Source: Nitrospinota bacterium
Lineage (GTDB): Bacteria > Nitrospinota_A > UBA7883
NCBI GenBank assembly: GCA_016207925.1
Contig: JACQZB010000052.1
Coordinates: 11,792-75,791, forward strand
Direction of reading: 5' to 3'
Length of the DNA stretch: 64,000 nt
The notes under the pieces were generated by a model. That model saw nothing but the letters and a program-made list of their open reading frames with translations. It searched no databases and was not told where the DNA came from. A program made the translations under genes and the position numbers. Shown here in pieces: positions 22,050-39,421 of the stretch; the stretch's first letter is position 1, and each line of letters opens with the position of its first letter.

Positions 22050-24189
22050 AAAGGACGTAACCCTCGACCGGATGCTGGTCAAAATCTCCCATCTGGACCG
22101 GTTGCTGGGGCTGGTGGGGGAGGTGATCATCACTTCCAACTCCATCGCCACCACCAACCGGCGCATCCAGGAGCATTACGACCGCAAGGCGCCGCTGGAC
22201 AAGCTTTCGATGGACATGATCAAGGCGGCGGAGGAGTCGAGCAACCGCATCTCCTCCGACCTGCATGGGCTGGTCATGGACATCCGCATGGTGGAGATCA
22301 AGGGCACGTTCCAGCGGTTCCGCCGCCCCATGCGCGACATGGCCAAGGAAGCCGGCAAGGAGGTGGAATTCGTCACCGAGGGGGAGGACACCCTGGTGGA
22401 CAAGACCATCGCCGAAAAACTGTACGATCCTATCAACCATCAGATACGCAACGCCATTGACCACGGGGTCGAGGACCCGTTTGAGCGCCAGCGCGCGGGA
22501 AAGCCCGCCAAGGCCAATGTGCTGTTAAAGGCGTACCAGCGCGAGAACAACATCTACATCGAAATCCGCGATGACGGACGCGGCATGGATCCGGACGCCA
22601 TCGCGCGCGCCGCCGTCGCCCGCGGGCTGGCCTCGGAGACGGAGACGGCGCGGCTTTCCCCGGAAGATAAGCTTCGGTTCATTTTCCAGGCCGGATTCTC
22701 CACCAAGGAAAAGGCCAGTACGCTCTCCGGCAGGGGCGTGGGGATGGACGTGGTCCGCAGCAACATCGAGGAGCTGGGCGGCGAGGTGGTGATAGACACG
22801 CGCATCGGCCAAGGCAGCGTGTTCATCTACAAGATTCCGCAAGTCACCGCCGTGAATATCCTCGACTGCCTTACGGTGCGCTCCGGCGCCAACCTGTTCG
22901 CGGCGCCCATACTCAACGTGGTCTCCACGGTGCGCGTGCCGCGCGCCAAGATACATGTCGCCTTTGGCAAGGGCAAGTCCATCACGCACCTGGGGAACAT
23001 CATCCCGCTGCACGACCTCAATGAGTTGCTGGGCGAGTCGCCGCTGGATCACGCCGGCGACGCCACCATCGTGATCCTGGAGGCCAAGAAGGGCCGCCTG
23101 GCGGTGGAGGTCAGCGAGTTTTTGGCGCCCGAAAAGCTGGTGTACACGCCGCTGGGAAGAATGTTCCACGTGCAGGGCGTCTCCGGCGTGACGGTGATGA
23201 GCGGCAACAAAATGGGGCTGGTGATTGACGCGGCGCAGCTTTTGGACCGTTCGCGCGGCATCGCCGCGGATGTCGAGGAGGAGGGGTCGGTCAGCGCGCT
23301 GGTCAAGAAGATCAAGGAGGGCGGCATTCAGGCCGCCGCACCGCCCCCGCCCGTGGAAAAGGCGCCCCCCGCCGTTACGGCGGCGCCTGCCGGCATGGTG
23401 GAAGCGGAAAGTTTCGGCGACCGCAAGGTGCTTTCCTCGGATGTGGGCAGGGAAATCGCCCACCGCGAGGAGTTCCTCATGGAACTTGAGGAAATGCTCA
23501 ACGCCGCCGGGGGGGAAATCCTTTCACTGGAGCAAAACCCCAACGACCGCGAACTGCTCAACCGCATCTTCCGCGCCTTCCATTCGATGAAGGGCAACCT
23601 GATGATGGTGGGCCTTACGGAGTTGGGATCATTTATCCACGAGGTCGAGGCCATCCTGGACCGGGCGCGCTCCGGCGATCTGACGGTGGACAGCGAAATC
23701 GTGGACATCCTGCTCGACGGCGCCGACGTGATCGGCGCGGCGCGCCAGGCGCTGGCGCAGGGCAAAGCGCCCTCCATTGACACGGGCTTGCTCAAAACAA
23801 TCGAGAAGTTCAAAAAACCGCTAGAGAAAAAAGAGGCCCAGATCGTGGACGTGAGCCAGCGCACCTTCCACCTGGGCGCGCTGGAGCGCTTTAACCTGCT
23901 CGCGCGCCGCCAGGCGGGCCAGTACGTCTATCAGGTATTCCTTTCCTTCAAACCGGAGTACCAGCAGCCGTTCCTCGTGGCGCTGCTCATCCTGCGGCGA
24001 CTTTCTGATATCGGCCTGATTTTCGGTTCCGTGCCCGCCGTGGAGGAGATTGAGAACCAGAGCGTGGGCACACAGCTTAAGGTCATGTTCGCTTCGCAGT
24101 ACGACTCGGAAAAACTGAAGGAGTACGTCGAGTCGCGGTTGGTGAAGTTCTACGACGTTACCGATTTTGAAATCCTTAAAACGTTCTGA
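22042..24189 (+). CDS. CheA-like histidine kinase with permuted domain order (P3 dimerisation, P4 HATPase, P5 CheW-like, HPt, then an unknown C-terminal domain)
   Basis: 715 aa. Overlaps the upstream REC gene by 8 nt. N-terminus starts with CheA P3 motif (LDRLLGLVGEVII). P4 N-box, G1 and G2 motifs present (HQIRNAIDHGVE, DDGRGMD, GRGVGMDVV). CheW-like domain around aa 270-410. HPt motif FRAFHSMKGN around aa 520. About 150 unassigned C-terminal residues. Confidence 0.75.
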   Translation: MTEKDVTLDRMLVKISHLDRLLGLVGEVIITSNSIATTNRRIQEHYDRKAPLDKLSMDMIKAAEESSNRISSDLHGLVMDIRMVEIKGTFQRFRRPMRDMAKEAGKEVEFVTEGEDTLVDKTIAEKLYDPINHQIRNAIDHGVEDPFERQRAGKPAKANVLLKAYQRENNIYIEIRDDGRGMDPDAIARAAVARGLASETETARLSPEDKLRFIFQAGFSTKEKASTLSGRGVGMDVVRSNIEELGGEVVIDTRIGQGSVFIYKIPQVTAVNILDCLTVRSGANLFAAPILNVVSTVRVPRAKIHVAFGKGKSITHLGNIIPLHDLNELLGESPLDHAGDATIVILEAKKGRLAVEVSEFLAPEKLVYTPLGRMFHVQGVSGVTVMSGNKMGLVIDAAQLLDRSRGIAADVEEEGSVSALVKKIKEGGIQAAAPPPPVEKAPPAVTAAPAGMVEAESFGDRKVLSSDVGREIAHREEFLMELEEMLNAAGGEILSLEQNPNDRELLNRIFRAFHSMKGNLMMVGLTELGSFIHEVEAILDRARSGDLTVDSEIVDILLDGADVIGAARQALAQGKAPSIDTGLLKTIEKFKKPLEKKEAQIVDVSQRTFHLGALERFNLLARRQAGQYVYQVFLSFKPEYQQPFLVALLILRRLSDIGLIFGSVPAVEEIENQSVGTQLKVMFASQYDSEKLKEYVESRLVKFYDVTDFEILKTF

Positions 24190-24194
24190 CAGCC

Positions 24195-25115
24195 ATGGCC
24201 GACATCATACTGGCGGGAAGCTCCGACGAATCCCTGGGCGGCGTGGGGGATATCCTCGCGGCGCGGGGCGAAAAATGCGAACGGCTGGAGCTTGACCTGA
24301 CGCATCCCGAATTTATCAGCCGCGTGGCCGGTCTGCGGCCCGCCGTGGTGCTGGCGCGGTTCCATGAGGGCGATCTGGCCTCCATCAAGGCCATGCAGAC
24401 CATGCGGATGGCCACCCGCTGCGTGCAGGCCATTTTCATCACCCAAAAACCGCTGTCCGCCCCCATCCTGACGCTGATGTTCAACGAGGGCGCCTTTGGC
24501 GTACTGCAGGAACCGCTGGACGCCGCGCTGGCCTGGCAGCTTATCCGCCAGGCCATCAAACGCAGCAAATGGGAACGCGATGAAATGGCGCGGGACGAGG
24601 AACTGCGCCGCCTTAACGAAAGCCTGCGCCAGCGCGCGGATATGTTGGAAGGCGAGACCGCCCGCGACCATGAAACCATTGACCGGCTCGAGCAACTCGC
24701 CTATCTATTGATCGCCGACCGGGGCTTCAAGCCGCAATCGGTGCAGGCGCTCATTGTCTCCAACGCGGAGTACCAGCGCGGACTGCTGGAGGAAGAATTC
24801 AAAAAGCTCGGCTTCGTCACCCATACCGCCAAGACCGCCGGCGAGGCCATGCCGATGATAAAGAAACAGTCGCCGGACATCGTGCTGTCCGACCTGGAAC
24901 TGTCCGACATGTCCGGCATGGAGTTCGGCAGGAAGGTCAAAAGCGAGCAGGGTTATCCCCGCACCCATTTTGTGATCATCACCTCCTCGCCGGAGAAGGT
25001 GGACAAAATCATGTCGCCGGAGACAAAAGTGGATGATTGCGTGGTCAAGCCCCACGGCGGCGGCAAGTTGTACACCATCGTCGCCCGCGCCGCCCTGGGC
25101 CTGCTGGAACGCTAG
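24195..25115 (+). CDS. tandem receiver protein: N-terminal pseudo-receiver (no phospho-Asp) plus C-terminal functional-looking receiver
   Basis: 306 aa, 6 nt downstream of the CheA-like gene. Domain 1: SSDE and PAVVLARF replace the DD and phospho-Asp positions. Domain 2: SDLELSD, FVIITSS and VVKPH retain D/T/K. Confidence 0.65.
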   Translation: MADIILAGSSDESLGGVGDILAARGEKCERLELDLTHPEFISRVAGLRPAVVLARFHEGDLASIKAMQTMRMATRCVQAIFITQKPLSAPILTLMFNEGAFGVLQEPLDAALAWQLIRQAIKRSKWERDEMARDEELRRLNESLRQRADMLEGETARDHETIDRLEQLAYLLIADRGFKPQSVQALIVSNAEYQRGLLEEEFKKLGFVTHTAKTAGEAMPMIKKQSPDIVLSDLELSDMSGMEFGRKVKSEQGYPRTHFVIITSSPEKVDKIMSPETKVDDCVVKPHGGGKLYTIVARAALGLLER

Positions 25116-26131
25116 ATTCTTACCCCGGGCAGAAGCCGCGCCACGTTGACGCGCATGGCGTCCTCCGCCTGCGCCAGCGTTTCTTTCGCCACGGCGCGGG
25201 CCTTTAGCGTCCCTTCGCGCAGTACGCCGAGCACTTCGTCCCGCCGCGGCTCCCAATACGCGCGCCGCTCCAATAGCGGATCGAGGCGCGTCATGATGTG
25301 TTTCGCCAGATGTTTTTTGCAGTCCACGCAGCCGCGCGTGGCGGTAGTGCATTCCTTCCACGTCACCTCGTTTTCGCCTTTGGGCGAGAAGGCAAGGTGG
25401 AAACTGTACGCCACGCATTTATCCGGATCGCCCGGATCGCTCCGCCGGACGCGGGCGGGGTCGGTGACGATATTGGCGATTTTGCGCGCCATCTGCTCGC
25501 GGCTGTCGGAAAGGTAAATGGCGTTGTTGTAGCTTTTGCTCATTTTGCGCCCGTCAAGGCCGGGCAGCTTGGGCACTTCGCTCATCAGCCCGTCCGGCTC
25601 CACGAAGACCTTGGCCTTGTAGATGTCGTGGAAGCGGCGGACCAACTCGCGCGTCAGTTCAAGGTGCGGCAACTGATCTACCCCCACCGGCACGAAGCTG
25701 GCCTTGTACAGCACGATGTCCGCCGCCTGCAAAACGGGATAGCCCAAAAAGCCGTAGGTGTGCAGGTCGCGGTTCTCCACCTGCTCCATTTTTTCCTTGT
25801 AGCTGGGCACGCGCTCCAGCCACGGGATCGGCGTGACCATCGAGAACAGCAGGTGCAGCACCGCGTGTTCGGGGATCAACGACTGGATGAACAGCGTGCA
25901 GCGTTGCGGATCCAGCCCGGCGGAAAGCCAGTTGACGCCAAGGTCAACCAAGTTCTCCTCCAGTTGCGCCGTGTCCTCGTAATTGCTGGAGAGGGCGTGC
26001 CAGTCGGCGGCGAAATAAAAGCAGTCGTATTGGTCTTGGAGTTTCACCCAATTGGAAAGCGCGCCGAGCAGGTTGCCAAGGTGCAGCTTGCCCGTGGTCT
26101 GCATACCTGAAAGCACTCGCTGCTTTGTCAT
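25112..26131 (-). CDS. trpS: tryptophan--tRNA ligase
   Basis: ORF 25112..26140. Class-I HIGH-type motif (TGKLHLGN) and KMSKS. Length and overall pattern match TrpS. Confidence 0.88.
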   Translation of the reverse strand: MTKQRVLSGMQTTGKLHLGNLLGALSNWVKLQDQYDCFYFAADWHALSSNYEDTAQLEENLVDLGVNWLSAGLDPQRCTLFIQSLIPEHAVLHLLFSMVTPIPWLERVPSYKEKMEQVENRDLHTYGFLGYPVLQAADIVLYKASFVPVGVDQLPHLELTRELVRRFHDIYKAKVFVEPDGLMSEVPKLPGLDGRKMSKSYNNAIYLSDSREQMARKIANIVTDPARVRRSDPGDPDKCVAYSFHLAFSPKGENEVTWKECTTATRGCVDCKKHLAKHIMTRLDPLLERRAYWEPRRDEVLGVLREGTLKARAVAKETLAQAEDAMRVNVARLLPGVRI

Positions 26132-26141
26132 AAACACCAAA

Positions 26142-26855
26142 TTACGGATACAACAAAAACGAAAGGATAACGTTCAAAAGCGGTAAAAGCGTCCAATTTA
26201 TAATATGAAACGGGTTGAACAACAAGAGGAAAAGCAGGATCGGCAAGCCATACGGCTCTATGCGGGCGTAGGTGAGCGCCTGCTTTTCCGGCAGCAGGCC
26301 CACCAGGATACGTCCGCCGTCCGCCGGAGGCACGGGGATAAGATTTATCAGCGCCAGAATCACGTTGATGTACACGCTGAACGTGAGCATCAGGAACAGC
26401 ACGTTCAGCGTCCACGAGTCCGACCCATGGGCGGACATGAACGTTTGCGTGTACGCTTCCGGATAGAACATCGCCAGGGTTTTGTATGCGGCGGAACTGG
26501 CCACCGCCAGCGCCATGTTGGTGAACGGCCCCGCGGCGGCCACCCACACCATGTCCCGCTTGGGGTCGTACAGACGCCCAAAATCCACCGGCACCGGCTT
26601 GGCGAACCCGAACAGGAACTTGAATCCCATCAAGCTGGAGAGCATATACAGCGCCAGGGGCAGCACGATAGTACCGAACCAGTGGATGTGGGCCAGCGGG
26701 TTGAGCGTAAGACGCCCCATGCGCGCCGCGGTGTCGTCGCCGCGCAGGAAGGCGACATAACCGTGGGAAATTTCGTGCAGCACCACGCCTAAAATCGCGG
26801 GCGGGGCAATGACCAAGACCGCTTCCAGAAAATTGGGCAGCACAGAACTATCCAT
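26142..26855 (-). CDS. site-2 protease family (M50) membrane zinc metalloprotease
   Basis: 237 aa polytopic. HExxH (HEISHG) in a TM helix and downstream NLIPVPPADGG (LDG-type) motif. Confidence 0.75.
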   Translation of the reverse strand: MDSSVLPNFLEAVLVIAPPAILGVVLHEISHGYVAFLRGDDTAARMGRLTLNPLAHIHWFGTIVLPLALYMLSSLMGFKFLFGFAKPVPVDFGRLYDPKRDMVWVAAAGPFTNMALAVASSAAYKTLAMFYPEAYTQTFMSAHGSDSWTLNVLFLMLTFSVYINVILALINLIPVPPADGGRILVGLLPEKQALTYARIEPYGLPILLFLLLFNPFHIINWTLLPLLNVILSFLLYP

Positions 26856-27172
26856 ATTTTCAACTCTAACACATCCGCTTCTTGTGTCATGGGAAAACCG
26901 GGGTTGAAGGCACTAAAGATACCATTGATGGAATCGGGGCGGAAAAATTTTCCGCATCCGCGCGCCCTTTGGCCCAGACGCGCCGGGAAACTGAAACGCC
27001 AGTGTTTAAGCGATGTTGGCAGGCAGCGGAGCAACGTATTGAATAACTGAAAGTAAAAATCGCTAATGGGGTGTTTCCCCCGATCCGATACATAAGGCGA
27101 TTCGTGGCCCGCGCCACGGCATGGAATTGGCTCTGTCATGGAGTGACAGGGTTTAAGCGCAAGGAGGATACG

Positions 27173-27916
27173 ATGCTGGGGTTGTCGTTATTCAGGATCG
27201 GAGGGAAAAACGGTAAGGCAAGCCGCCGCCCGGGCGCCATATCCTTGGCCCGGCATATTATTGAGCGCGCCTGCCGCCGGTCGGTACATACGGAAGTCAC
27301 GGTCAAGGGAACCGGCAAGCGCTATGGCTCGTTTTTTGTCGCGATGAACCCCGCCAACTCCGGCGAGTATTACCTGGACGCGCTGGCGCCGCACTCGATG
27401 CACGAGTTTTTGACTCCCGGCGCAAGCGTGCTGGAGCTTGATTTTGACATTCGCGGCACGCGGTACCAGCTTGAAAGCCTGTATCGCGGAATCGAGTTGT
27501 ACGAAGGGTTTCACACCTTGCGGCTGGAGATTCCCCCGGCCATCCGCGAAACCCAGCGGCGTGAAGCCTATCGCGTCCGCCCGCGCATAACCGATCCCGC
27601 GCGGTTGGAGTTGGCCGGCGGCGAAAAGATAAACCTGCACGACATAAGCGGCGGCGGGGTCAGTTTCACTCTTGACCGCAAAATCGCGCCCGGTCAGATG
27701 CTGTCGGCGCGGCTGCGCCTGCCCGGTGAACGCGCGCCGCTGAACCTGAAGATCGAAGTGGTGGCCTGCGAGACGCGCAATCACAACGGCGTCACGGCGG
27801 CGCCGGGGATGTGCCTGACGCGCGGCAAGTTCGCGGGGCTTTCGCTGGACGAAGAGCGCCGCGTGTACAGCTATGTGCTGGACCGCGAGCGGGAGTTGCT
27901 GCGCGTATTCGGCTGA
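27173..27916 (+). CDS. PilZ-domain c-di-GMP-binding protein
   Basis: ORF 27071..27916, ATG 27173 preceded by AAGGAGG. RxxxR (QRREAYR) and D-x-S-x-x-G (DISGGG) PilZ signatures. Confidence 0.8.
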   Translation: MLGLSLFRIGGKNGKASRRPGAISLARHIIERACRRSVHTEVTVKGTGKRYGSFFVAMNPANSGEYYLDALAPHSMHEFLTPGASVLELDFDIRGTRYQLESLYRGIELYEGFHTLRLEIPPAIRETQRREAYRVRPRITDPARLELAGGEKINLHDISGGGVSFTLDRKIAPGQMLSARLRLPGERAPLNLKIEVVACETRNHNGVTAAPGMCLTRGKFAGLSLDEERRVYSYVLDRERELLRVFG

Positions 27917-27994
27917 TCCGATGTGTATCCCGCGTTGCCAGCCGTTATCCCGCGCTGGTATCATGGCTCCCATACCATTCACGCGGGATACATC

Positions 27995-28327
27995 ATGGAC
28001 AGCTATTATCACTCCAGGGATCTTGCGCGCTTCGGCGACATCGGCAAGGAAGCCCCCGAACTGGCCAAAAAGTTTTTTGACTACTACAACGCGGTGTTCG
28101 CCGAGGGTGAACTGACCGAACGCGAAAAAGCGCTCATCGCGCTGGGCGTGGCCCACGCCGTCCAGTGCCCCTACTGCATAGACGCTTATACCCGCGCCGG
28201 ACTGGAAAAAGGCGCCAGCCCCGCCGAATTGACCGAGGCGATCCATGTGGCCGCCGCCATACGGGGCGGGGCCAGCCTGGTCCACGGCATCCAGTCGCGC
28301 AACGTCATGGACAAGCTTTCCCTGTAA
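27995..28327 (+). CDS. carboxymuconolactone decarboxylase / AhpD-like family protein with CxxC motif
   Basis: ORF 27923..28327, ATG at 27995. AhpD-core-like helical pattern with CPYC (AHAVQCPYCIDAY). Confidence 0.6.
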   Translation: MDSYYHSRDLARFGDIGKEAPELAKKFFDYYNAVFAEGELTEREKALIALGVAHAVQCPYCIDAYTRAGLEKGASPAELTEAIHVAAAIRGGASLVHGIQSRNVMDKLSL

Positions 28328-28334
28328 CCGGCGC

Positions 28335-29354
28335 ATGGATACCATGGATTGCGGCGGCGCCCCCGCGGGCACCTTGCCGTTCAGCCAGGCGTTGGCGGAA
28401 CGCGGCGTCACGCTCACCCGGGCGAAAACCACGGCGCTGCAGGTCAACATGGGGCTGGTGTGCAACCTCTCCTGCCGCCACTGCCACGTGGAGGCGGGGC
28501 CGCGCCGGACGGAAAGTATGGACGAAGCCACCGTCCGGCGAACGGCGGACTACGCCGCGCGCGGAGAATTTCTTTCCGTGGACATCACCGGCGGCGCGCC
28601 GGAGTTGAACCCTCACCTGCGGTTATTGATCGGGCTTGTCCGGCCGCACGTCCAGCGGATCATGATCCGCACGAACCTGACGCTGCTGCGCCGTCCGCCA
28701 TATAGCAAGCTGATAGAGACCTTCCGCGAGAACCGTGTGGCGGTGGTCGCGTCGTTTCCCTCGGTCAACCAATCCCAGGCGGAGGCGCAACGGGGCGACG
28801 GCGTGTTTGATGACAGCGTGGACGCGCTGCGCGCGCTTAACGCCGCGGGATACGGGGCAGGGGATACGGGGCTTGACCTGATGCTGGTGGTCAATCCTTC
28901 CGGCTCGTTCATGGCGCCCCCGCAGGAGGCGGTGGAAAAACGTTTCCGCGAAACCCTTGCGCGCCGGTGGGGGATAACCTTCACCGGCCTTCTCGCCTTC
29001 TCCAATGTCCCCTTGGGCCGGTTCGGGCGATGGCTGGCCGAGTCGGGTAATCTGGAAAGCTATTACCGCAAATTGGACGAGGGATTTAATCCCTGCGCCC
29101 TGGCGGCGGTGATGTACCGTACGCAGCTGCGTGGCTGGCCCCGGCTTCTCCTGCGGCGGGGCGATCGCGCGGTAGGGGCGGCTCGATGGGCCGCCCGAAT
29201 CGGGCGAGGCGGCGCCTCGCCCCTACAGAGGATGTGTGAACGGAGAAATTGCGGGGGCGCAGAATGCCGCGCCTCCGCCAATTCATACATCCGCGCCTTT
29301 CCGCGTTACCCTGTACTCCAGAATCGTGCAATACAGGGCGGGCAGCGCGATTAA
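28335..29354 (+). CDS. radical SAM protein, ArsS-like (arsenosugar-biosynthesis rSAM / Cys-rich family); 3' end uncertain (frameshift or recoding)
   Basis: ORF 28245..29354, ATG 28335. LQVNMGLVCNLSCRHCHVEAGP matches the CxxxCxxC rSAM cluster in ArsS-type context. Frame-0 tail after about 29100 is Arg-rich junk that runs 72 nt into cusA. The +1 frame holds TGA (29110-29112) followed by the Cys-rich tail CTVRSCVAGPGFSCGGAIAR ending at 29175. Confidence 0.6.
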   Translation: MDTMDCGGAPAGTLPFSQALAERGVTLTRAKTTALQVNMGLVCNLSCRHCHVEAGPRRTESMDEATVRRTADYAARGEFLSVDITGGAPELNPHLRLLIGLVRPHVQRIMIRTNLTLLRRPPYSKLIETFRENRVAVVASFPSVNQSQAEAQRGDGVFDDSVDALRALNAAGYGAGDTGLDLMLVVNPSGSFMAPPQEAVEKRFRETLARRWGITFTGLLAFSNVPLGRFGRWLAESGNLESYYRKLDEGFNPCALAAVMYRTQLRGWPRLLLRRGDRAVGAARWAARIGRGGASPLQRMCERRNCGGAECRASANSYIRAFPRYPVLQNRAIQGGQRD

Positions 29355-32300
29355 CGACAGCAGGGTCACACTCACCATGCCGCCCACCATGGGGGCGGCG
29401 ATGCGCCGCATCACTTCGGCGCCCGCGCCTTCGCCGAACATGATGGGCGCCAAGCCGCCCAGGATGGCGAACGTGGTCATCATGATGGGCCGCACCCGCC
29501 CAATGACGCCCTCCAGCGTGGCCTCGCGCGCGTCCTGGACGGTATTCCACCGCCCCGCCGCGCGGCGCCGCTCAACCGCCAGGTTGATATACACCAGCTT
29601 GAGTACGCCGATTTCCGCCGCCACGCCGGCCAGGGCGATAAAGCCCACCCCCACCGCCACGCTGAAATGGTAGCCCAGCCACCACATCAGGTACAGCCCG
29701 CCGATGGCCGACAGCGGCAGCATCAGCATCACCAGCAGGCTTTCGGTGACCGCGCGGAAGTTCAGGTATAGCAGGATGAAAATCACCGCCAGCGTAAGCG
29801 GCACGATAACTTTAAGCCGCTCCGTCACGCGCTCCATGCTCTCGTATTGTCCGCTCCACTTCAGGCTGACGCCGGAGGGCAGTTTCACCCGTTCGGCCAC
29901 GCGCGCCTTGGCGCCCGCGACAAACGTGGCCATGTCCATCCCCTCGATGTCCACGTAGATCCAGGTATTCAGCCGCGCGTCCTCCGTCTTTATCATCATC
30001 GGGCCGGAGGTAAGCTCGATGTCCGCAAGCTGCGCCAGGGGGACCTGGGCGCCCATCATGGTGGAAACCAGCGTCCGGCGCAGCCGTTCCACGTCGTCGC
30101 GCATCTCGCGTCCATAGCGGACGTTGATGGGGTAGCGCTCCCGGCCCTCCACGGTGTATCCGATGGTCATGCCGCCGATGGCGCTGGCGATGACCTCCTG
30201 CACGTCGCCCACGTTAAGCCCATAGCGGGCCGCCGCGCCGCGCCGCACGCGGATGTCCAAAAACGATCCGCCCAGCGCGCGGTCGGCGAACACGCTGCGA
30301 AGCCCCGGCAGCCCGCGCAGCGCCGATTCAATCTCCACCGCCACCGTGTCCACCACGGCCAAATCCGGGCCTGCCACCTTGATCCCCACGGGGGTGCGGA
30401 TGCCGGTGGAGAGCATGTCAATGCGGGTTTTGATCGGCATGGTCCAGGCGTTGGTGACGCCGGGGAAGCGGATGGCGCCCTCCATCTCCGCCATCAAGGA
30501 CTCGGTGGTCACGCCGGGCCGCCACTGCGCGCGGGGTTTGAGCTTGACGATGGTCTCGATCATGCTCAAGGGGGCGGGGTCGGTGGCGGTTTCCGCCCGG
30601 CCCGCCTTGCCGAACACCCGTTCCACTTCCGGGAACGTTCGCAGAATGCGGTCGGTGTGCTGGAGTATCTCCCGCGCCTTGGTGACAGAGACGCCCGGCA
30701 GCGTGGTGGGCATGTACAGGATGTCGCCTTCGTCAAGGGTGGGCATGAACTCGCCGCCCACCTTTGTCAGGGGCAGCCACGTGGCCAGCGCCGCCGCTAG
30801 CGTGACCGCCAGCACCGCGCCCTTGTGGTTCAGCGCCCAGTGGGTGACGGGCCGCACCAGGGCGATGAACGCCAGCGTCAGGGGGTTCATCCGCTCCGGA
30901 ACCATGCCGCCCCGGATGAAGTACACCATCAGCGCCGGGGTGAGCGTGATGGCCAAGATCGCCGCGGAGGCCATGGCGAAGGTTTTCGTATAGGCCAGCG
31001 GCTTGAACAGCCTGCCTTCCTGATCCTCCAGCGTGAACACCGGAAGGAACGAGATGGTGATGATCATCAGGCAGAAGAAAAGCGCCGGGCCGACCTCCTT
31101 GGCCGCGTCAATCATGATGTCCGCGCGGGGCCGTTTTCCCCCCTCGGCTTCCAGTTTCTTGTGCGCGTTCTCGATCATTACCACCGAGGCGTCAATCATG
31201 GCGCCGATGGCGATGGCGATGCCGCCCAAACTCATGATGTTGGCGTTGATCCCCATCCAGCTTATGGCCATAAGCGCCATCAGGGCGCCCAGCGGCAGCG
31301 TGAGGATCGCCACGAAGGAGGAGCGCAGATGCATCAGGAACACCATGCACACCAGCGCCACGATCACGCTTTCCTCCACCAGCTTTTCCTTGAGGAACTC
31401 CACCGCGCGCAGGATCAAGGCGGAACGGTCGTAGGTCTCCACGATTTCCACCCCTTCGGGCAGGCCGCCGCGCAGGCGCTCGATTTTCTCGCGGACCAGT
31501 TCGATGGTCCTAAGCGCGTTTTCGCCGAACCGCATCACCACCACGCCGCCTACCGTCTCTCCCTCGCCATCCAACTCGGCGACGCCGCGCCGCAATTCCG
31601 GGCCGATGGTGATGTTGGCCACATCGCCCAGGTAAATAGGCGTGCCGCTTTCATTGGAACCGATGGTAACGCGGCGCAGGTCCTCCGGAGAACGGATGTA
31701 GCCGAAGGAGCGCACCATGAATTCGGTCTCGGCCATTTCCAGCAGGCGGCCGTCCACGTCCTGATTGCTTTTCTTGATCGCCTCGGTGACGCGCATCAGC
31801 GGGATGCCGTAGGCGGAAAGCTTATTGGGGTCAACCTCCACCTGGTACTGTTTGACGAAGCCGCCCACGCTGGCCACCTCCGCCACGCCGGGCACGGTTT
31901 GCAGCTCGTAGCGCAGGAACCAGTCCTGCAACGAGCGCAGTTGGGCCAGATCGTGCTTGCCGGAGCGGTCCACCACCGCGTATTCATACACCCAGCCCAC
32001 CCCGGTGGCGTCCGGACCCAGCACGGGGTTGGCGGCGGCGGGCAGCCGGCCCGCGACGCCGTTGAGGTATTCCAGCGTCCGGCTGCGCGCCCAATACAGG
32101 TCCGTGCCCTCCTCGAAAATGATGTACACAAAAGAAGTCCCGAAGAACGAGTAGCCCCGCACATTCTTCGCCTTGGGCACCGCCAGCATGGCCGTGGCCA
32201 AGGGGTAGGTGACCTGATCCTCCACCACTTGCGGCGTTTGGCCCGGATAATCGGTATAGATGATTACCTGCACGTCGCTTAAGTCCGGTATGGCGTCCAG

Positions 32301-32405
32301 CGGAAGATGCTTGACGATGTAGTAGCCCGCCACGGTGATCATGACCGTGGCCATAATCACCAAAAAACGGTTGCGCGCCGAAGCGGTGATAATCGCGTTG
32401 AGCAT
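29283..32405 (-). CDS. cusA: heavy-metal (Cu/Ag) efflux RND transporter, CusA/CzcA family
   Basis: ORF 29283..32420. Near-collinear similarity to CusA (PDLSDVQVIIYTDYPGQ, DATGVGWVYEYAVVDRSGKHDLAQLRSLQDWFLRYEL). ATG 32405 aligns with the CusA N-terminus. The alternative ATG at 32420 overlaps the cusB stop (ATGA). Confidence 0.92.
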   Translation of the reverse strand: MLNAIITASARNRFLVIMATVMITVAGYYIVKHLPLDAIPDLSDVQVIIYTDYPGQTPQVVEDQVTYPLATAMLAVPKAKNVRGYSFFGTSFVYIIFEEGTDLYWARSRTLEYLNGVAGRLPAAANPVLGPDATGVGWVYEYAVVDRSGKHDLAQLRSLQDWFLRYELQTVPGVAEVASVGGFVKQYQVEVDPNKLSAYGIPLMRVTEAIKKSNQDVDGRLLEMAETEFMVRSFGYIRSPEDLRRVTIGSNESGTPIYLGDVANITIGPELRRGVAELDGEGETVGGVVVMRFGENALRTIELVREKIERLRGGLPEGVEIVETYDRSALILRAVEFLKEKLVEESVIVALVCMVFLMHLRSSFVAILTLPLGALMALMAISWMGINANIMSLGGIAIAIGAMIDASVVMIENAHKKLEAEGGKRPRADIMIDAAKEVGPALFFCLMIITISFLPVFTLEDQEGRLFKPLAYTKTFAMASAAILAITLTPALMVYFIRGGMVPERMNPLTLAFIALVRPVTHWALNHKGAVLAVTLAAALATWLPLTKVGGEFMPTLDEGDILYMPTTLPGVSVTKAREILQHTDRILRTFPEVERVFGKAGRAETATDPAPLSMIETIVKLKPRAQWRPGVTTESLMAEMEGAIRFPGVTNAWTMPIKTRIDMLSTGIRTPVGIKVAGPDLAVVDTVAVEIESALRGLPGLRSVFADRALGGSFLDIRVRRGAAARYGLNVGDVQEVIASAIGGMTIGYTVEGRERYPINVRYGREMRDDVERLRRTLVSTMMGAQVPLAQLADIELTSGPMMIKTEDARLNTWIYVDIEGMDMATFVAGAKARVAERVKLPSGVSLKWSGQYESMERVTERLKVIVPLTLAVIFILLYLNFRAVTESLLVMLMLPLSAIGGLYLMWWLGYHFSVAVGVGFIALAGVAAEIGVLKLVYINLAVERRRAAGRWNTVQDAREATLEGVIGRVRPIMMTTFAILGGLAPIMFGEGAGAEVMRRIAAPMVGGMVSVTLLSLIALPALYCTILEYRVTRKGADV

Positions 32406-32416
32406 GGCCGCCTCCC

Positions 32417-33886
32417 TCAATGGCCCGCGTGGCCGCCGCGGGAGGGAGCGCCCCCCTCACCGGCGGATGGCGGCGTAATCATGTCCATGCCGGACATGCC
32501 GTTATCATCCGTTGGAGCCGTCATTTCCGGTTCCGGCGCGGACACCGGCGCGGCTGCTTGGCCGCCGTGCTGATGACCGGCGTCTGGCGCGCCGCCCATC
32601 TTGCCGATGGCCTCGCGCAGCTTGGATTCGGAATCAATCAGGAACTGCGACGAGGTGACCACCGTCTCGCCCTCTGACAGGCCGGAGAGTATTTCCACCT
32701 CGCCGCCGCTGTCTATCCCGGTGGTGACGGGGCGCGGCTCGAACCGCCCCCCGCCCAGGCTGATGAACACCAGCTTGCGCGCGCCGGTGCGGATCACCGC
32801 CTCCGAGGGGATGACCAGCGCGTCATGCGCCTCGCCGGCGCGGATCGCCACATCGCCGTACATGTCGAATTTCAAAACTCCGTCGCGATTGTCGAATTCA
32901 ACCCGCGCCTTGGCGGAGCGCGTCTTGGGGTCCAGATAGGGATAGATGTAGGTGATCTTCCCTTGCAGCGCGCGTCCCGGCGCCGCGGCGAGCGTCAGCA
33001 CCGCGGATTGCCCCACGCGCACGTAGGGGGCCTCGTACTCGTAAACGTCCGCGTTGACCCACACCCGCGAGGCGTCGGCGATTTCATACAGCGTGTCGCC
33101 CGGCATGATGTAGGAACCTTCGGTGACGTTTTTGGAGATGATCACCCCTGATACGGGGGAATGTATGTGCAGAGTTTTTTTCACCTGCCGGGTGCGTTCC
33201 AACTCTTCAATCTGGTGCGGTGGCACGTCGAACAGCGCCAGCCTGCGCCGGGACGACTCCAGCAGGCTTTCCCCGCCCTTGACGATGGCGTCATGTTCGC
33301 CCCGCCGCACCGCGTCGCGGTACTTGAGCGCCAGGATGAACTCCTCCTGCGTGGTCACCAGGTCGGGGCTGTACAGCTCAAGCAGAATGTCGTCCACATT
33401 TATTTTCCGGCCCGTTTCGTTGACATACAGCTTCTCGACCCACCCCATCACTTTGGGCTGGATGCGGGCCAGCCGGGTCTCGTCGTAGGTGACAATGCCG
33501 GTGGTGCGTATCTCGCGCGCCAGCGTGGTCCGGCGCGCCGTGGCGTACCGCACCCCAATGGTCTGCGCCACCGCGGGATCAATGCTCACCACGCCGGCCG
33601 CCGCCGCTTCATCCGCATACACGGGGATATAATCCATATTCATGGAATCCTTGGCGGGGCGGTCACTGGTAATAGAGGGATCCATCGGATGGCGGTAGAA
33701 AAGGATTGCGCGCCCCTTTTCATCACTCTTGGCCGCGGGCGCCTGCGCGGCGCCGCGATGCGACAGATAGCTCCAGCCATAGTATCCCGCCGCGATGGCA
33801 AGCGCCAGCGCCACCGTCAGCGCGAACCGTTTCCTGTACACAGCGGGAGTATTCACCCCGCCCGTTTCGCTGTTGAATTCGCTCAT
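32417..33886 (-). CDS. cusB: efflux RND periplasmic adaptor subunit, CusB-like, with C-terminal His/Met-rich tail
   Basis: 489 aa. Membrane-fusion-protein fold motifs. His/Met-rich C-terminus (DAGHQHGG...GMSGMDM...GGHAGH). Overlaps cusA. Confidence 0.85.
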   Translation of the reverse strand: MSEFNSETGGVNTPAVYRKRFALTVALALAIAAGYYGWSYLSHRGAAQAPAAKSDEKGRAILFYRHPMDPSITSDRPAKDSMNMDYIPVYADEAAAAGVVSIDPAVAQTIGVRYATARRTTLAREIRTTGIVTYDETRLARIQPKVMGWVEKLYVNETGRKINVDDILLELYSPDLVTTQEEFILALKYRDAVRRGEHDAIVKGGESLLESSRRRLALFDVPPHQIEELERTRQVKKTLHIHSPVSGVIISKNVTEGSYIMPGDTLYEIADASRVWVNADVYEYEAPYVRVGQSAVLTLAAAPGRALQGKITYIYPYLDPKTRSAKARVEFDNRDGVLKFDMYGDVAIRAGEAHDALVIPSEAVIRTGARKLVFISLGGGRFEPRPVTTGIDSGGEVEILSGLSEGETVVTSSQFLIDSESKLREAIGKMGGAPDAGHQHGGQAAAPVSAPEPEMTAPTDDNGMSGMDMITPPSAGEGGAPSRGGHAGH

Positions 33887-35089
33887 GGCTCACTCCCGGT
33901 GAAATCCGCCCCGGTAAGGGCGTCTATTTCCGCGTAACGTTCCCGCAGGCGCCGTTGGGCTTCCTCGCGCGCCAGTTGATACTTGAGCAGCCCCAACTCC
34001 GCGCCGATGACCGCCATGGATTCGAGTTTGTCCACCCGGTAGGCGGCCATGGAGCTTTCGAAGGTCTGCGCCCCCTGGGGTATGATGCCGGTGTCGTACA
34101 GCCGGATGGTTTCCCGCTCGCGCCGCACGCCGGCCAATTTACTGGCCAGTTCCGACCGCAGCCGCAACTCTTCACCCGCCAGTTCATCGTGGGCCGCCCG
34201 TTCGGCGAACCGCGCGCCCTTGATTAGCCGGTCCTGCTTGGCGGCGCGCCACAGGGGGACACTCACCGAAGCCATGACAGAGGCCATGTCGGGCCGCTCC
34301 ATTTCCCCATCGTCGCGCTGGCCGTATTGCGCGGTGAGGGTGACATCATAACCGGCCATGCCTTCCGCCACGCGCGCGCCCGCCGCCGTTTCCGTGATTT
34401 TCGCGCGCGCCATCAGAAGGCGCGGGGCGCGCGGCTGGGCGCCTTTCCACAGCGCCTCCAACTCATCCACCCGCCCCTCGATGGACGGCGGGGCCGCCGC
34501 CACGAACGCGGCGGAGGGGTCGCGCCCAAGTGCGGAGGCGGCGCGGTAACGGGCGCGATGCAGCATTTCGGCAAGTTCGAGGCGCCGTTCGATCAACATG
34601 CTGCGCTCCACCTGCGCTTGCAGCACGTCCGCCTGGGTCACCTTGCCCGCGGCGTACTTGGCGGTGATGACCCCCACCATGCCGTCGAGCGCCGCCTCGT
34701 TGCGCGCGCATGGCCCGCCGCGCGCGGAGCATCTCCGCCCGCGCCAGCCCCATGTCCCGCTCCGCCGCGCGCCGCGTGGCGCTGGGTATGGTCTGGGTGA
34801 CGCCGATCATCTTTTGCGTCATCTCCTCCTTGTCCAGCCGCCAACTGTCCACCGGAACATCCGTGACGCCCAGTTCGATCATCGGGTCCATCCACGCCAT
34901 CGCGGCGGAGGCGCCTTCAACGGCGGCGGCGACCTCGTGATCGAGCGCGCGAAGCTCCGGGTTATTGCCGGCCAGTTCCTGGACAAGCGTCTCAAACGAG
35001 GGGGCCGCCTCCGCCGCCGCCGCGCGCGAAGCGCCCAATAGCGCCGCGAGCGCCAATGCCACTGCTGTAATTCGCATTTTCCGATCCAT
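33883..35089 (-). pseudogene. cusC: TolC-family outer-membrane efflux protein (CusC-like), interrupted by a 1-nt frameshift in a (GC)4 run near 34701-34713; pseudogene or sequencing error
   Basis: Two adjacent ORFs (34463..35146 and 33883..34680) both carry TolC-like sequence. The frame changes within tgcgcgcgcatgg. Signal peptide MDRKMRITAVALALAALLGASRAAAA, with GGAGAAGAG Shine-Dalgarno before ATG 35089. Confidence 0.6.
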
Positions 35090-35190
35090 TGCTGCTCTTC
35101 TCCCCACGGGTGAACGAGCGGGTTGCGCCAGCGCGCGGACGGACATATGCCCGCGCGGGTTGACACATTACGCGCGTGAGCGCGCGAAGG

Positions 35191-35526
35191 TCAGGCGCGA
35201 GGGGGACGGTCTATGAGGGACGCGAAGGGAAGAAGATTGGGCGCGTCCGGAGCGGACGGCATGGAGGCGAACAGCGCGGAGAAACCTTCCGAAGCGCCCA
35301 TGTCCAGGTTCAGCGCGGCGCCATGGCAACAGACCAGGCCGGCGTCGCAACTGTCGCAAGGCGCGGGCGCATGATCCTGATGCGGGGAGGGGATGTGCTC
35401 GCAGGGCGAAGGCGGCTGCGCGGCTTGATGGGCGTGCGTTTGCGCCGCATCAGCCTCAGTGGCGTACGCCAAGGACACCATCAGCCCCATTGCTAGGGCC
35501 ACCGCCGCGCGGATTATCGTGTTCAC
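35191..35526 (-). CDS. small secreted Cys/His-rich protein, putative periplasmic metal-binding protein upstream of cusCBA
   Basis: 111 aa, GTG start with GGAG Shine-Dalgarno. Signal peptide. Mature part enriched in His and Cys (PCEHIPSPHQDHAPAPCDSCDAGLVCCHG). Confidence 0.5.
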   Translation of the reverse strand: MNTIIRAAVALAMGLMVSLAYATEADAAQTHAHQAAQPPSPCEHIPSPHQDHAPAPCDSCDAGLVCCHGAALNLDMGASEGFSALFASMPSAPDAPNLLPFASLIDRPPRA

Positions 35527-35772
35527 ACCTGCTCCACCGTATCGTTACGTTTACTTTACCACACCCGGCGCATTCGCGCCATGGTGATTCGCGCACGGCT
35601 CGATTTACCTAACCGTCAGTATGCAGGGTATATTAAAATAATTCACACGGTGGGAGCCTCGGCGCGCCGCGAGGGACGGAGCAAACACGGATGAATCGCC
35701 ACCCCAAGGGGCGGACCGGGGCGCGCTTCTTGAGTTATAATTTATATAACTAAAAGCATACCGGAGGTTTGG

Positions 35773-38374
35773 ATGACCCTGCATGCGGCCCGCTCGGCGC
35801 GGCGCATCGTCATCATCTACCTGGTATTCGGGCTGGCCTGGATTTCCCTGTCCGACCTGGCGGCGTTGTGGCTGGCCGGTGACGCCATGGAATGGCAATT
35901 CAGCCAGACGTTCAAGGGCAGCGCTTTCGTCGTCATCACCGGCGCCCTGCTGTACGCGCTGATCGGCAAGGCGTTCGGGAGCCTTTCCCTGGCCGAGCGG
36001 GAAAACGCGCGAATCAACCGCCTGTACCGGATGCTCTCCGCCAGCAACCACGCCGTGGTCCACGCCGCTTCGCGGGAGGAGGCGATCCGCACGGCGCTCG
36101 ATGTAATCACGCAGACCGGCGGCTACCGGCTGGCGTGGGTGGGCTTCCTCATCCCCGCTGATGAGCGCAAGCGTATCCGCATCGCCGCCGCCGCGGGGGC
36201 CACCGCGGCGCTGGAGGGTCAGGAATTCACCTGGGACAACTCGCCGCAAGGCCAATCCCCGGCGGGACGCGCGATAAAATCGTGCCGCCCCGCCACCTGC
36301 CACGACACCGCGCGCGACCCCACTTTTGTCTATTGGCGCGACATGGCCGCGCGGGCCGGTGTGCGCGCCATGGTGGGTTTGCCGCTTGTGGTGGAAGGGG
36401 AGATCGCCGGAGCGCTGACCGTGGGGGCGGATTCCGTGAATGTGTTTGACGACGAGGAGATGGAAATCCTGCAGGAGGTGTCCAGCGATCTGGCGCACAT
36501 TATCGAGAACCTGAAAATCACCGAGGCGCGCAAATCGGCGGAGCGCGGTCTGGCGCGTTCCGAGGCGCGTTGGCGCTCGCTGGTGTCCCAGGCGCCGGAC
36601 TATATCCTGACCGTGAACCGCGAGGAAATAATCACGTTCGTCAACCATTCGGCGCCGGGCGCCCCCCCGCCGGAGCGGATCGTGGGCATGAACGTGTACA
36701 GCTACCTTCCTCCCGATCAGCGTGAAACGGTGCGCTCCGCCCTGGCGAACGCTTTTGAGCGGGGCCAGCCGACAACGTATGAAGCCAAGGTCAACGTCCC
36801 CGGCGTGGGCGAGCAGTGGTACCTGTCCATCTGCGGGCCGGTGGTGGTGGACGGCGTGGTGGAAAGCGCCATGTTCATGGCCCACGACATCACCGCGCGC
36901 AAGGAGCGCGAGCGCAAGCTGTTCGAGGCGGAGCAGAAGCTCGAAACGCTGGTCAATTCCATAGACGGCATCGTGTTCATCGTTGACCGGCAGGGCCGCT
37001 ACACCTCGCTGCATGGCCGCTGGTTCGACCGGTACGATACCGACGCCCAGGCCTACCTCGGCAAACACGCCGGGGACCTTTTTGGCGCCCGTTACGCCGA
37101 AACGCACACCGCCGCATACCGCCGCGCGCTGGAGGGCGAGTATGTCATCTTTGAATCCATCGTGACCATCGGGGGGCACAAGCGCTTTTTCCAGACCTCG
37201 CTGTCCCCCACCTACGACAAGGCGGGCGCCGTCACCGGCGCCGTGGGCATCGGGCGCGATATAACGAAGATCAAACCCGCCGAGGAGAACAGGCTACACC
37301 GCCGAGGAGGTGATCGGCCAGAACCCCAGATTCCTCAAGTCCGGCGATACGCCGCAGGAAGTGTACAGGGAATTGTGGGAAACCATAACCACGGGCGGCG
37401 CCTGGCGAGGCGAACTGCTGAACAAAAAAAAGAATGGCGAATATTTTTGGGAAACAGCTTCCATCTCCCCCATCCGCGACAGCCAGGGGAACATCACCCA
37501 CTTCCTGGCGGTCAAGGAGGACATCACGGAGCGCAAAAGCTACGAGTCCTCGTTGCGCGCCTCCAACGAAATGCTCACCAAGACCCTTAACGAAATGGTG
37601 CGGCTGCAAACCAGCCTGATACGCACTGAAAAACTGGCCTCGCTCGGCGCCCTGTCCGCCGGCGTGGCGCACGAAATCAAGAATCCACTCAACATCATCG
37701 CCACCACCGTGCAGTTGCTGGAAATGGAAGCCCAGGTGCCGGAGGAAAGCCGCGCGCAGTTCGCCACCATCCTTGAACAGGTGCAGCGCGCCGCGCGCAT
37801 CACCGAAAACCTGCGCGACTTCGCCCGCGAACGCAGGCCGGAAATACGCGCGGTCAACCTGCAGGCGCTGCTGGATAAAACCCTGGCGCTGGTGCGCTAC
37901 GAAATGGGGCTGGAAAACATCAAGTCCGTCACTGAATTCCCGGAAGACCCGATCACCCTGATGGCCGACGCTGACCAGTTGGCGCAGGTATTCCTCAACA
38001 TCATCTCCAACGCGCGCGACAGCATGAACGAACGGCAGGCCGCCGAGCCGTATGACCAGTTGGCCGCGAAAGGATGGGAAGGCGTCCTGCGCATCACCGT
38101 GCGCCGCCGGGATGGGCGCGTGGTGATAGAGTTCCATGACCAGGGCAAGGGCATCCCGCAGGAGGCGATGGACAAACTGTTCGATCCTTTTTTCACCACC
38201 AAGCCCGAAGGCAAGGGCACGGGGCTGGGTCTGTCCATCTCCCACAGCATCATCGAAAACCACGGCGGAAGCATCCGCGCCGCCAGTATGCCGGGTGAAG
38301 GTTCCACCTTCACCATCTTGCTGCCCCTTGAGGAGGAATCCCCCGGCGCCACGGATATACTGGAGCGCCGGTGA
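35773..38374 (+). pseudogene. sensor histidine kinase (2TM-GAF-PAS-PAS-[truncated PAS]-HisKA-HATPase), disrupted by frameshift and apparent internal deletion near 37285
   Basis: ORFs 35773..37590 and 37310..38374. First ORF turns to junk after DITKIKPAEE. Second ORF resumes mid-PAS (TGYTAEEVIGQNPRFLKSG) with its N-terminal half missing, then an intact HisKA H-box (HEIKNPL) and HATPase (GTGLGLSIS). ATG 35773 has a GGAGG Shine-Dalgarno. Confidence 0.6.
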
Positions 38375-38639
38375 CCATCCGGCTGAGAAAATATATGTTA
38401 ATAAGTCAAGTATTTATCGCTATTTATTGATTTGGTTTCTTATGGGAAAGGCGCCTTGTTTATATACAGGAAGGCTGAGAGGCTCCGGTTCAAACCACCA
38501 CCCGTCTTGGCTGCGGCGCGAACAAATGAGTTGAATCCCTAACCGCCAAGTGTTCATCTATCTTTAAACTTACCGTTTCGCCGGGGGGCGTAGCGACGGC
38601 CTGGCTGGTGGAAAGGTTTTTGTCGGGAAAGGCAGCAAC

Positions 38640-38996: not shown

Positions 38997-39009
38997 AAGG
39001 AGCATCACG

Positions 39010-39402: not shown

Positions 39403-39421
39403 CGAAGAAAGGAACGGCGCC

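Follow-up and report, generated by a model that had tools for sequence, protein, structure and literature searches.

ArsS and its selenoprotein forms

ArsS catalyzes the transfer of a 5'-deoxyadenosyl group to a methylated arsenical to yield DDMAA (bioRxiv 10.64898/2026.04.29.721666). The family, TIGR04167, includes selenoproteins, as its NCBIfam name indicates, and is described with a GxxU motif, for which the protein AAR34688.1 from Geobacter sulfurreducens is an example (PMC13188914). In the alignment of homologues the selenocysteine column corresponds to the last Cys of the motif GF[ST]-C/U-GGAI, and four loci of the Sec form (L002-L005) carry an in-frame TGA at this position. These loci read TGA-GGN-GGN-GCN-ATC, followed by the hairpin GCCTGAGTTCAGGC, which starts about 17 nt past the UGA, includes the true stop and is invariant among the four, the four sequences being near-identical and the SECIS element having been assessed by motif search and folding. 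The entries of 108 of the 119 homologues examined end at GF[ST], which shows that most ArsS database entries are, as read from the alignment, truncated at the UGA.

The reference for comparison is a sister Nitrospinota lineage, represented by the ENA contig ERZ4903125 k141_4489534 (L001/L010). Its ArsS (P0002/P0241) contains 326 residues and matches the full TIGR04167 profile, positions 2-303, with 359.2 bits. The sister genotype is present in two assemblies, which are 99.8% identical.

A model in which palindromic or quasi-palindromic DNA brings the two ends of a deletion together was reportedly put forward by Glickman and Ripley in 1984.

Organization of the arsS locus

The window, a stretch of 64,000 nucleotides from a Nitrospinota genome, contains an arsS gene next to the convergent cusA. 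The features of the locus are the following.

27995..28327, + strand: AhpD-like, arsenosugar biosynthesis-associated peroxidase-like gene, 110 aa, CPYC motif, intact
28335..29126, + strand: arsS 5' part in frame 0, radical-SAM domain and first half of DUF3641, ending in ...FNPCALAAVMYRTQ
28461-28484, + strand: CNLSCRHC cluster motif of arsS
29110..29112, + strand: TGA, spanning the frame-0 codons GTG (29109-29111) and ATG (29112-29114)
29115..29117, + strand: TAC (Tyr) replacing Cys (TGC in L001), a second lesion, 10 nt 5' of the junction
29121..29132, unstranded: perfect 12-nt palindrome ACGCAG/CTGCGT, with the deletion junction 29126/29127 at its centre
29128..29175, + strand: arsS 3' remnant, now in the +1 frame, CVAGPGFSCGGAIAR and TAG
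29130..29354, + strand: frame-0 read-through tail, Arg-rich, without homology, 72-nt overlap with cusA
29152-29154, + strand: TGC, the codon at the Cys/Sec column of the family
29155..29221, unstranded: nested strong hairpins in the arsS-cusA spacer

The AhpD-like CxxC protein, noted directly upstream of arsS in the initial annotation, is indeed a member of TIGR04169 (185.1 bits, cutoff 120) and also matches Pfam CMD. It is 96% identical to its L001 orthologue, with a dN/dS of 0.037. The trio PilZ-CMD-ArsS is kept in L001, L006 and L007, and the adjoining AhpD-like partner together with the orthologous position identify the locus as arsS by descent, though disrupted.

The open reading frame 28245-29354 exists as computed, with a tail that overlaps cusA (stop at 29283) by 72 nt, and its assignment to the ArsS family is borne out by the TIGR04167 match (E 1e-80). 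The start at 28245 falls inside the AhpD-like gene; the likely start is instead the ATG at 28335, which is the NCBI call, or 28344, which matches the start of the relative by alignment. The match to TIGR04167 scores 271.1 bits, below the cutoff of 300, and covers profile positions 2-240 of 303. Pfam identifies Radical_SAM, while the match to DUF3641 is limited to positions 1-73 of 134. The CxxxCxxC residues C43, C47 and C50 of the radical-SAM domain are present and occupy invariant columns common with the 119 homologues. Past residue 265 the frame-0 product shows no family match in profile and Pfam searches. It is deposited as MBI4828170.1, a “DUF3641 domain-containing protein” of 339 aa, which includes the 77-aa frame-0 tail.

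The +1 frame reads as the initial annotation described it: the TGA at 29110-29112, then CTVRSCVAGPGFSCGGAIAR, then a TAG at 29173-29175, which leaves 108 nt to the cusA stop. The hairpins at 29155..29221 fold with z = -3.2, none of 200 shuffles folding as well, and are probably a bidirectional terminator region.

A 149-nt deletion in arsS

The tails of the window gene and of L001 were compared by affine global alignment, blastn and tblastn; default MAFFT misplaced the tail. Global nucleotide alignment reveals a single 149-nt gap relative to L001 at window position 29126/29127, the absent piece being L001 6784-6932. By blastn, L001 1-6783 corresponds to window 22344-29126 and L001 6933-6971 to window 29127-29165, with 37 of 39 positions identical (95%). 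By tblastn, residues 1-262 of P0002 lie in frame 0 and residues 311-324 in the +1 frame (window 29125-29166, 93% identity). The missing 149 nt amount to 49 codons and 2 nt, that is, orthologue codons 262-310 plus 2 nt, encoding VSAAWDGYLYDCDFHLARRVPLGGRPTHVSQMEGAPEEGSPIALCDYCY, and tblastn found no copy of these 49 residues elsewhere in the 64-kb window. Since the loss is of 3n+2 nucleotides, the last 15 codons (CVAGPGFSCGGAI..) are placed in the +1 frame and frame 0 continues as junk into cusA.

These results modify the earlier reading of the gene. Frame 0 had been considered junk after about 29095, while its homology runs on through AAVMYRTQ to 29126. The frame change had been placed in the GGC run and is located at 29126/29127, at a 149-nt gap and not a 1-nt indel. 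The +1 tail was correctly recognized as the family C-terminus insofar as it is homologous from 29127/29128, and this homology, CVAGPGFSCGGAI, begins only after the junction; CTVRS, which follows the TGA, is MYRTQ misread out of frame.

Residues invariant in the 119 homologues that are deleted from the window gene include S263, G268, D272, C273, D274, F275 and C309, so that DCDF and CxxC are affected. Among the five invariant Cys/Sec positions of the C-terminal domain (P0002 numbering), C273 and C309 are deleted, C258, which is Cys in all 119 homologues, is replaced by Tyr, and C312 and C/U320 are out of frame. No counter-evidence to a deletion scar was found. The gene is, with high confidence from these alignments, a Cys-type arsS that lacks 149 nt, with nothing recoded, and as recorded it cannot give a functional ArsS.

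Recoding, frameshifting or a truncated enzyme

Recoding of the UGA at 29110-29112 as selenocysteine via the downstream stem-loop, to give a tail U-CTVRSCVAGPGFSCGGAIAR, was suggested by the selenoproteins known in the family and by the presence of a TGA with a small palindrome. It would require an unexplained frame change 5' of the TGA, and the frame-0 sequence spanning the TGA shares homology with the conserved motif GVMCR, in which GTG-ATG encodes Val-Met and the Met is invariant in 119 of 119 homologues. The true Sec column is located 14 codons downstream and is occupied here by TGC, and the 49 conserved codons would still be absent. The proposed stem-loop is a genuine 12-nt palindrome but coincides with the deletion junction, and folding of the RNA at 29107-29160 is not more favourable than that of shuffled sequences (z = +1.0). 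The family hairpin was not found near the window arsS with up to 3 mismatches allowed, and an Rfam search gave no matches. The window, 64 kb of the genome, contains no tRNA genes, including tRNA-Sec, and there is no selA, selB or selD among the 19 large ORFs scanned. The alignment of homologues, which was the test put forward with the proposal, decides against it: the TGA is a frame artefact over Val-Met, and the probability of recoding is negligible.

A frameshift, the other explanation offered initially, was right in that the frame changes owing to missing bases, but no shift of frame repairs a deletion of 49 codons. If the GGC run (29103-29111) held a 1-nt indel from sequencing, or a site of programmed +1 ribosomal frameshifting, frame 0 would be joined to the +1 tail in a short functional protein; this would account for that tail ending in the real family C-terminus and being followed by a terminator-like hairpin. 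However, frame-0 homology extends 15 nt beyond the GGC run and switches only at 29126/29127, all 119 homologues are single-frame, and the product would still lack 49 residues, among them the invariant DCDF and Cys; this explanation is practically dismissed. Scarcely more credible is that the 339-aa protein read in frame 0 works as a shortened radical-SAM enzyme without the Cys-rich domain. The radical-SAM domain is indeed intact, and the 5' part of arsS shows a pairwise dN/dS of 0.14, but the latter is equally well explained by recency of the loss. Moreover, the 77-aa tail, which runs into cusA, is without homologues, none of the 119 other members lacks the Cys-rich domain, and the protein cluster of MBI4828170.1 has this one member only.

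Other losses and an inversion in the window

Four further losses relative to the sister lineage are found in the window: 104 nt in an HK/PAS gene, 77 nt in an OEP (cusC-like) gene, 111 nt in a sigma-54 activator, where the entire HTH_8 domain is lost, and 230 nt in an intergenic region. The five junctions, including that of arsS, are placed at 29126/29127, 34706/34707, 37291/37292, 40071/40072 and 42375/42376. At least three genes other than arsS have a clean 77-111-nt loss within 14 kb, and on either side of each of these losses the reading frame is otherwise intact and under constraint. No losses in the reverse direction, on the sister side, and no small frameshifts were found in the compared genes. 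The out-of-frame segments 3' of the losses contain no stops over 361 and 272 codons and have a dN/dS of 0.17-0.25. Junction microhomology is 0, 0 and 4 nt.

A 10.5-kb inversion relative to the sister lineage has its left breakpoint where homology to L001 stops, at 29165; this breakpoint, 29165/29166, is inside the last three arsS codons and 39 nt from the deletion junction. The spacer homology is too weak for base-level placement of the inversion breakpoints. No inverted repeats were found at the ends of the inversion. The region 3' of arsS differs in every lineage, and the outgroups L006 and L007 are therefore uninformative for polarising the inversion.

ArsS as a whole is not accelerated (pairwise dN/dS 0.14, relative-rate count 13 vs 11). 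The window-specific changes favour conserved C-terminal columns, L220, S223, D248, A258 and Y261, the excess being modest.

Record defect or recent pseudogene

The balance tips slightly toward the loss in arsS being a defect of the metagenome-assembled record rather than a lesion of a living genome. Such a defect could have arisen from a collapsed gap, or from the polymerase skipping over a hairpin while the library was being amplified. It is favoured because at least three similar clean losses occur within 14 kb, all of them on the window side, and because the codons downstream of them are free of stops and under purifying selection. The low dN/dS and even relative rate of arsS, the lack of small frameshifts and the recurrence of the sister genotype in two assemblies count on the same side. 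Several observations speak for the opposite view: the window contains no Ns, and the junctions have no long direct repeats, as a de Bruijn-graph shortcut would need. The exact junction sequence has no match in GTDB genomes or JGI metagenomes, and the degenerate pattern EGFNPCALAAVM has none in JGI metagenomes. A search with a 100-aa protein returned only 8 short proteins of 50-62% identity and no independent copy of the window lineage, and the protein of the window itself is absent from the contig index searched.

A genuine and very recent pseudogene is a substantial alternative, with a probability somewhat below even. Here the hairpin ACGCAGGT...ACCTGCGT would have juxtaposed the end-points and a replication or repair polymerase would have skipped the 149-nt loop, leaving arsS dead and its partner intact; the event may have been the same complex one that inverted the dsrEFH-cusCBA block, whose breakpoint is within the last codons of the gene. 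The missing segment is flanked in L001 by a perfect 8-bp inverted repeat, ACGCAGGT/ACCTGCGT, plus GCCGG/CCGGC, the arms of which pair in the MFE and centroid folds alike, and the chance that a random deletion would lie so symmetrically in a stem is P about 2e-4. The junction looks like the product of a polymerase or hairpin event, possible in vivo; none of the four remaining losses shows the inverted-repeat signature. The absence of an assembler-type repeat, the change of the invariant Cys to Tyr and the other changes at conserved C-terminal columns, which would be expected under relaxed selection, are also in favour of the pseudogene. With just 10 nt between it and the junction, however, the Tyr codon could as well stem from an error of the polymerase or at a contig end. 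The pseudogene also requires that within about 30 kb four genes were broken independently by deletions of similar size, each too recent for second lesions to have appeared and with dN/dS still at 0.1-0.25, and the compared genes bear no small-indel or nonsense signature. That all five clean losses of 77-230 nt are real, deletions that arose at hairpins or microhomologies in one very recent burst, together with the 10.5-kb inversion that ends in the arsS stop region, is rather doubtful. If true, it would be a snapshot of rapid loss of accessory and regulatory genes in a free-living groundwater Nitrospinota population.

Implications

Whether record defect or pseudogene, the finding is ordinary. 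It is mainly a caution for selenoprotein hunting: in a family with known selenoproteins, a TGA and a Cys-rich peptide of a different frame resembled recoding but proved to be a deletion scar. MBI4828170.1 is best regarded as a pseudogene or an assembly defect and its 77-aa tail as meaningless; the same annotation problem affects its contig neighbours, the HK/PAS, OEP and sigma-54 activator genes. A by-product of the analysis is the location of the Sec column and of the conserved SECIS-like hairpin in the selenoprotein forms of ArsS.

Comparison with known systems

The Sec forms of ArsS and the window arsS are alike in family, in domain order and in the C-terminal motif CYTC-x-AG-x-GF[ST]-[C/U]-GGAI. 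While GF[ST]-U is encoded with an in-frame TGA in the Sec forms and is followed by the hairpin, the window gene has TGC and no hairpin, and the sole TGA nearby is out of frame.

As in the Glickman-Ripley model, the end-points of the arsS deletion are set opposite one another in a stem, formed by the inverted repeat on both sides of the lost segment, but unlike in that model the junction is without flanking direct repeats. A signature of this type could also come from in vitro library amplification.

The ArsS proteins of the window and of the sister Nitrospinota (P0002) are 86% identical in amino acids and 87% in nucleotides. Both lineages have the upstream order CheA, response regulator, TrpS, M50 peptidase, PilZ, AhpD-like protein and ArsS, and both have the Cys-form C-terminus CVAGPGFSCGGAI. 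The sister encodes the full 326-aa protein, whereas the window gene lacks 149 nt and has Tyr at an invariant Cys, and the dsrEFH...cusCBA block downstream of it is inverted.

The arsS gene and its upstream partners

The gene at this locus belongs to a known family but is disrupted, and nothing in it is recoded. Its product matches NCBIfam TIGR04167, the arsenosugar biosynthesis radical SAM (seleno)protein ArsS, with an E-value of 1e-80, which bears out the family assignment of the initial annotation. With 271 bits the product falls short of the curated cutoff (300), and the match is confined to positions 2–240 of the 303 in the profile; in Pfam, it matches Radical_SAM and the first 73 of the 134 positions of DUF3641. 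ArsS is a radical-SAM enzyme, in which the 5'-deoxyadenosyl radical is added to an organo-arsenic substrate to yield DDMAA (bioRxiv 10.64898/2026.04.29.721666). The mechanically called ORF, 28245–29354, has its 5' end inside the upstream gene. The start is likely the ATG at 28335, as called by NCBI (MBI4828170.1); the alternative is the ATG at 28344, where the closest relative begins in the alignment.

27995–28327, directly 5' of arsS: AhpD-like gene with a CPYC motif (TIGR04169, 185 bits; cutoff 120)

This match confirms the AhpD-like CxxC protein noticed earlier immediately upstream, TIGR04169 being the usual partner of the ArsS family. The PilZ–AhpD-like–ArsS trio is kept in more distant Nitrospinota-like contigs, where the downstream neighbour differs, which suggests a conserved three-gene unit.

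In the Nitrospinota-like clade, the PilZ-domain gene is always located 5' of the AhpD-like/ArsS pair (window 27071–28327; sister contig L001; distant contigs L006 and L007). A sigma-70-like promoter match is found at 27935–27964, between the PilZ and AhpD-like genes.

A 149-nt gap relative to the closest relative

The protein search returned the window's own protein P0001, then P0002, a 326-residue ArsS of a sister lineage with 86% identity, followed by relatives at no more than 60%. P0002 covers the whole TIGR04167 profile with 359 bits and ends in ...FNPCALAGVMCRTQVSAAWDGYLYDCDFHLARRVPLGGRPTHVSQMEGAPEEGSPIALCDYCYTCVAGPGFSCGGAITA. Frame 0 of the window has ...FNPCALAAVMYRTQ, followed by sequence without homology, and the +1 frame reads CVAGPGFSCGGAIAR-stop. 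The contig encoding P0002 (L001/L010) and the window share gene order and 87% nucleotide identity from CheA to arsS, across TrpS, an M50 peptidase, PilZ and the AhpD-like gene. Only one clean gap interrupts the global alignment: 149 nt of L001 (6784–6932) have no counterpart in the window, with the junction at 29126/29127. In blastn, window 22344–29126 corresponds to L001 1–6783 and window 29127–29165 to L001 6933–6971, while in tblastn residues 1–262 of P0002 match in frame 0 and 311–324 in the +1 frame. The gap comprises codons 262–310 and two bases; because its length is 3n+2, the last 15 arsS codons lie in the +1 frame. No second copy of the missing 49 residues is present anywhere in the 64-kb window.

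The frame change had been placed in a (GGC)n run. Homology continues in frame 0 for 15 nt past this run and switches exactly at the 149-nt gap, and a small or programmed frameshift is thereby rejected. Moreover, the lost segment holds S263, G268, D272, C273, D274, F275 and C309, each invariant in 119/119 homologues, so a frame shift cannot rebuild ArsS. The window also has Tyr in place of the invariant Cys of VMCR (TAC at 29115–29117, against TGC in L001). The sequence facts recorded initially largely hold, except for the position of the frame change and the recoding interpretation.

A perfect 12-nt palindrome, ACGCAG/CTGCGT (29121–29132), is centred on the deletion junction. It was originally described as a stem-loop; the palindrome is real, but it is the deletion junction, and shuffled controls fold better than the RNA of 29107–29160 (z = +1.0). 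On either side of the segment that the window lacks, L001 has the arms of an 8-bp perfect inverted repeat, ACGCAGGT...ACCTGCGT, with GCCGG/CCGGC as an extension; they pair in both the MFE and centroid DNA folds. The deletion end-points face each other within this stem, an arrangement that a random deletion of equal length would show with P ~2e-4. A polymerase that skips a hairpin loop leaves a junction of this kind, and the skip may have happened in the cell or in vitro.

Other losses and an inversion in the window

The comparison also included L009, another assembly of the sister genotype, which is 99.8% identical to L001. Relative to the sister genotype, four further clean losses were found, all on the window side:

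34463–35146 and 33883–34680, minus strand: cusC-like outer-membrane efflux protein (OEP); 77 nt lost at 34706/34707, frame broken
35773–37590 and 37310–38374, plus strand: PAS/GAF histidine kinase; 104 nt lost at 37291/37292
40071/40072: intergenic loss of 230 nt, coding sequence unaffected
42349–43449, minus strand: sigma-54-dependent activator; in-frame loss of 111 nt at 42375/42376

The histidine kinase, intact with 902 residues in L001/L009, is broken in the window into one frame with residues 1–507 and another with 542–902; the two parts are otherwise free of stops and have a dN/dS of 0.17–0.25. The OEP has 420 residues in L009 and two frames in the window, and its junction shows a 4-nt microhomology, CGCG. 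The activator has 366 residues in the window versus 403 in L009, the loss taking exactly its Fis-type HTH_8 DNA-binding domain. The 230-nt segment lies in L009 upstream of a Fer4_11/NrfD gene pair and ends at the Fer4 start codon. The sister genotype shows no such losses relative to the window, and none of the genes compared contains a small frameshift.

The block dsrEFH-HK-hyp-cusCBA (window 29166–39714, 10.5 kb; cusA, cusB, OEP, hyp110, HK, dsrE, dsrE, dsrH) is inverted compared with L001 and L009, and no inverted repeats were found at its ends. The left breakpoint is 39 nt away from the deletion junction, within the final three codons of arsS; therefore the TAG at 29173–29175 and the strong hairpins at 29155–29221 (z = -3.2) derive from the opposite side of the inverted block. 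DsrH is represented in the sister contig by two short ORFs of 46 and 44 residues (L001 7013–7306), and the window region 39422–39712 also matches in two pieces, as either one split gene or a pair of mini-genes.

Genuine deletions or a defect of the record

The locus is quite possibly a defect of the metagenome-assembled (MAG) record. We lean somewhat towards the missing segments being a record-level artefact, as collapsed gaps or amplification jumps would yield clean losses of this kind. The segments 3' of the frame breaks have 0 stops over 361 and 272 codons and a dN/dS of 0.17–0.25; for the 5' part of arsS, dN/dS is 0.14 and the relative-rate count is 13 versus 11. A genuine, very recent pseudogene is a less probable but serious contender. 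It would need four gene-breaking events of similar size, all too recent for a second lesion, which is unusual in real pseudogenes; in its favour, the arsS junction carries a mechanistic signature, the junctions are without the long repeats that an assembler shortcut would need, and window-specific ArsS substitutions fall preferentially on conserved C-terminal columns. What remains beyond the artefact and the pseudogene is left to the refuted readings. No independent sample of the window lineage was found among GTDB genomes, JGI metagenomes or in the protein search.

Selenocysteine in the ArsS family

The TGA at 29110–29112, proposed initially as a selenocysteine (Sec) codon, results from reading the codons GTG-ATG in a frame shifted by one base, and the 'CTVRS' that follows likewise stems from MYRTQ. 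In the alignment of 119 homologues, the columns corresponding to V259-M260 hold V/L and an invariant M; the Sec column is elsewhere. The sequences of 108/119 homologues stop abruptly at GF[TS], and the remaining 11 go on with C-G-G-A-I. In the DNA of four loci encoding the Sec form (L002–L005), GF[TS] is followed by an in-frame TGA, then GGN GGN GCN ATC, with a stop six codons later. These sequences place the family's real Sec position directly after GF[TS], in line with the 'GxxU' motif that PMC13188914 gives for TIGR04167. Most ArsS database entries end six residues short, since gene callers take the Sec UGA for a stop. The positions listed for the Sec-form loci are L002 6955, L003 6949, L004 6922 and L005 3203.

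An invariant hairpin, GCCTGAGTTCAGGC, lies ~17 nt past the UGA in the Sec forms, with the true stop codon inside its 5' arm; it is a candidate for the family SECIS. No match to it was found near the window arsS with three mismatches allowed, and an Rfam search gave no matches. The 64-kb window contains no tRNA genes, and selA, selB and selD are absent among the 19 large ORFs scanned in it. The window codon at the family Sec position is TGC (29152–29154), therefore this is a Cys-form gene. The Cys form is common to the window arsS and its nearest relatives, P0002, P0003, P0004, P0006 and P0008.
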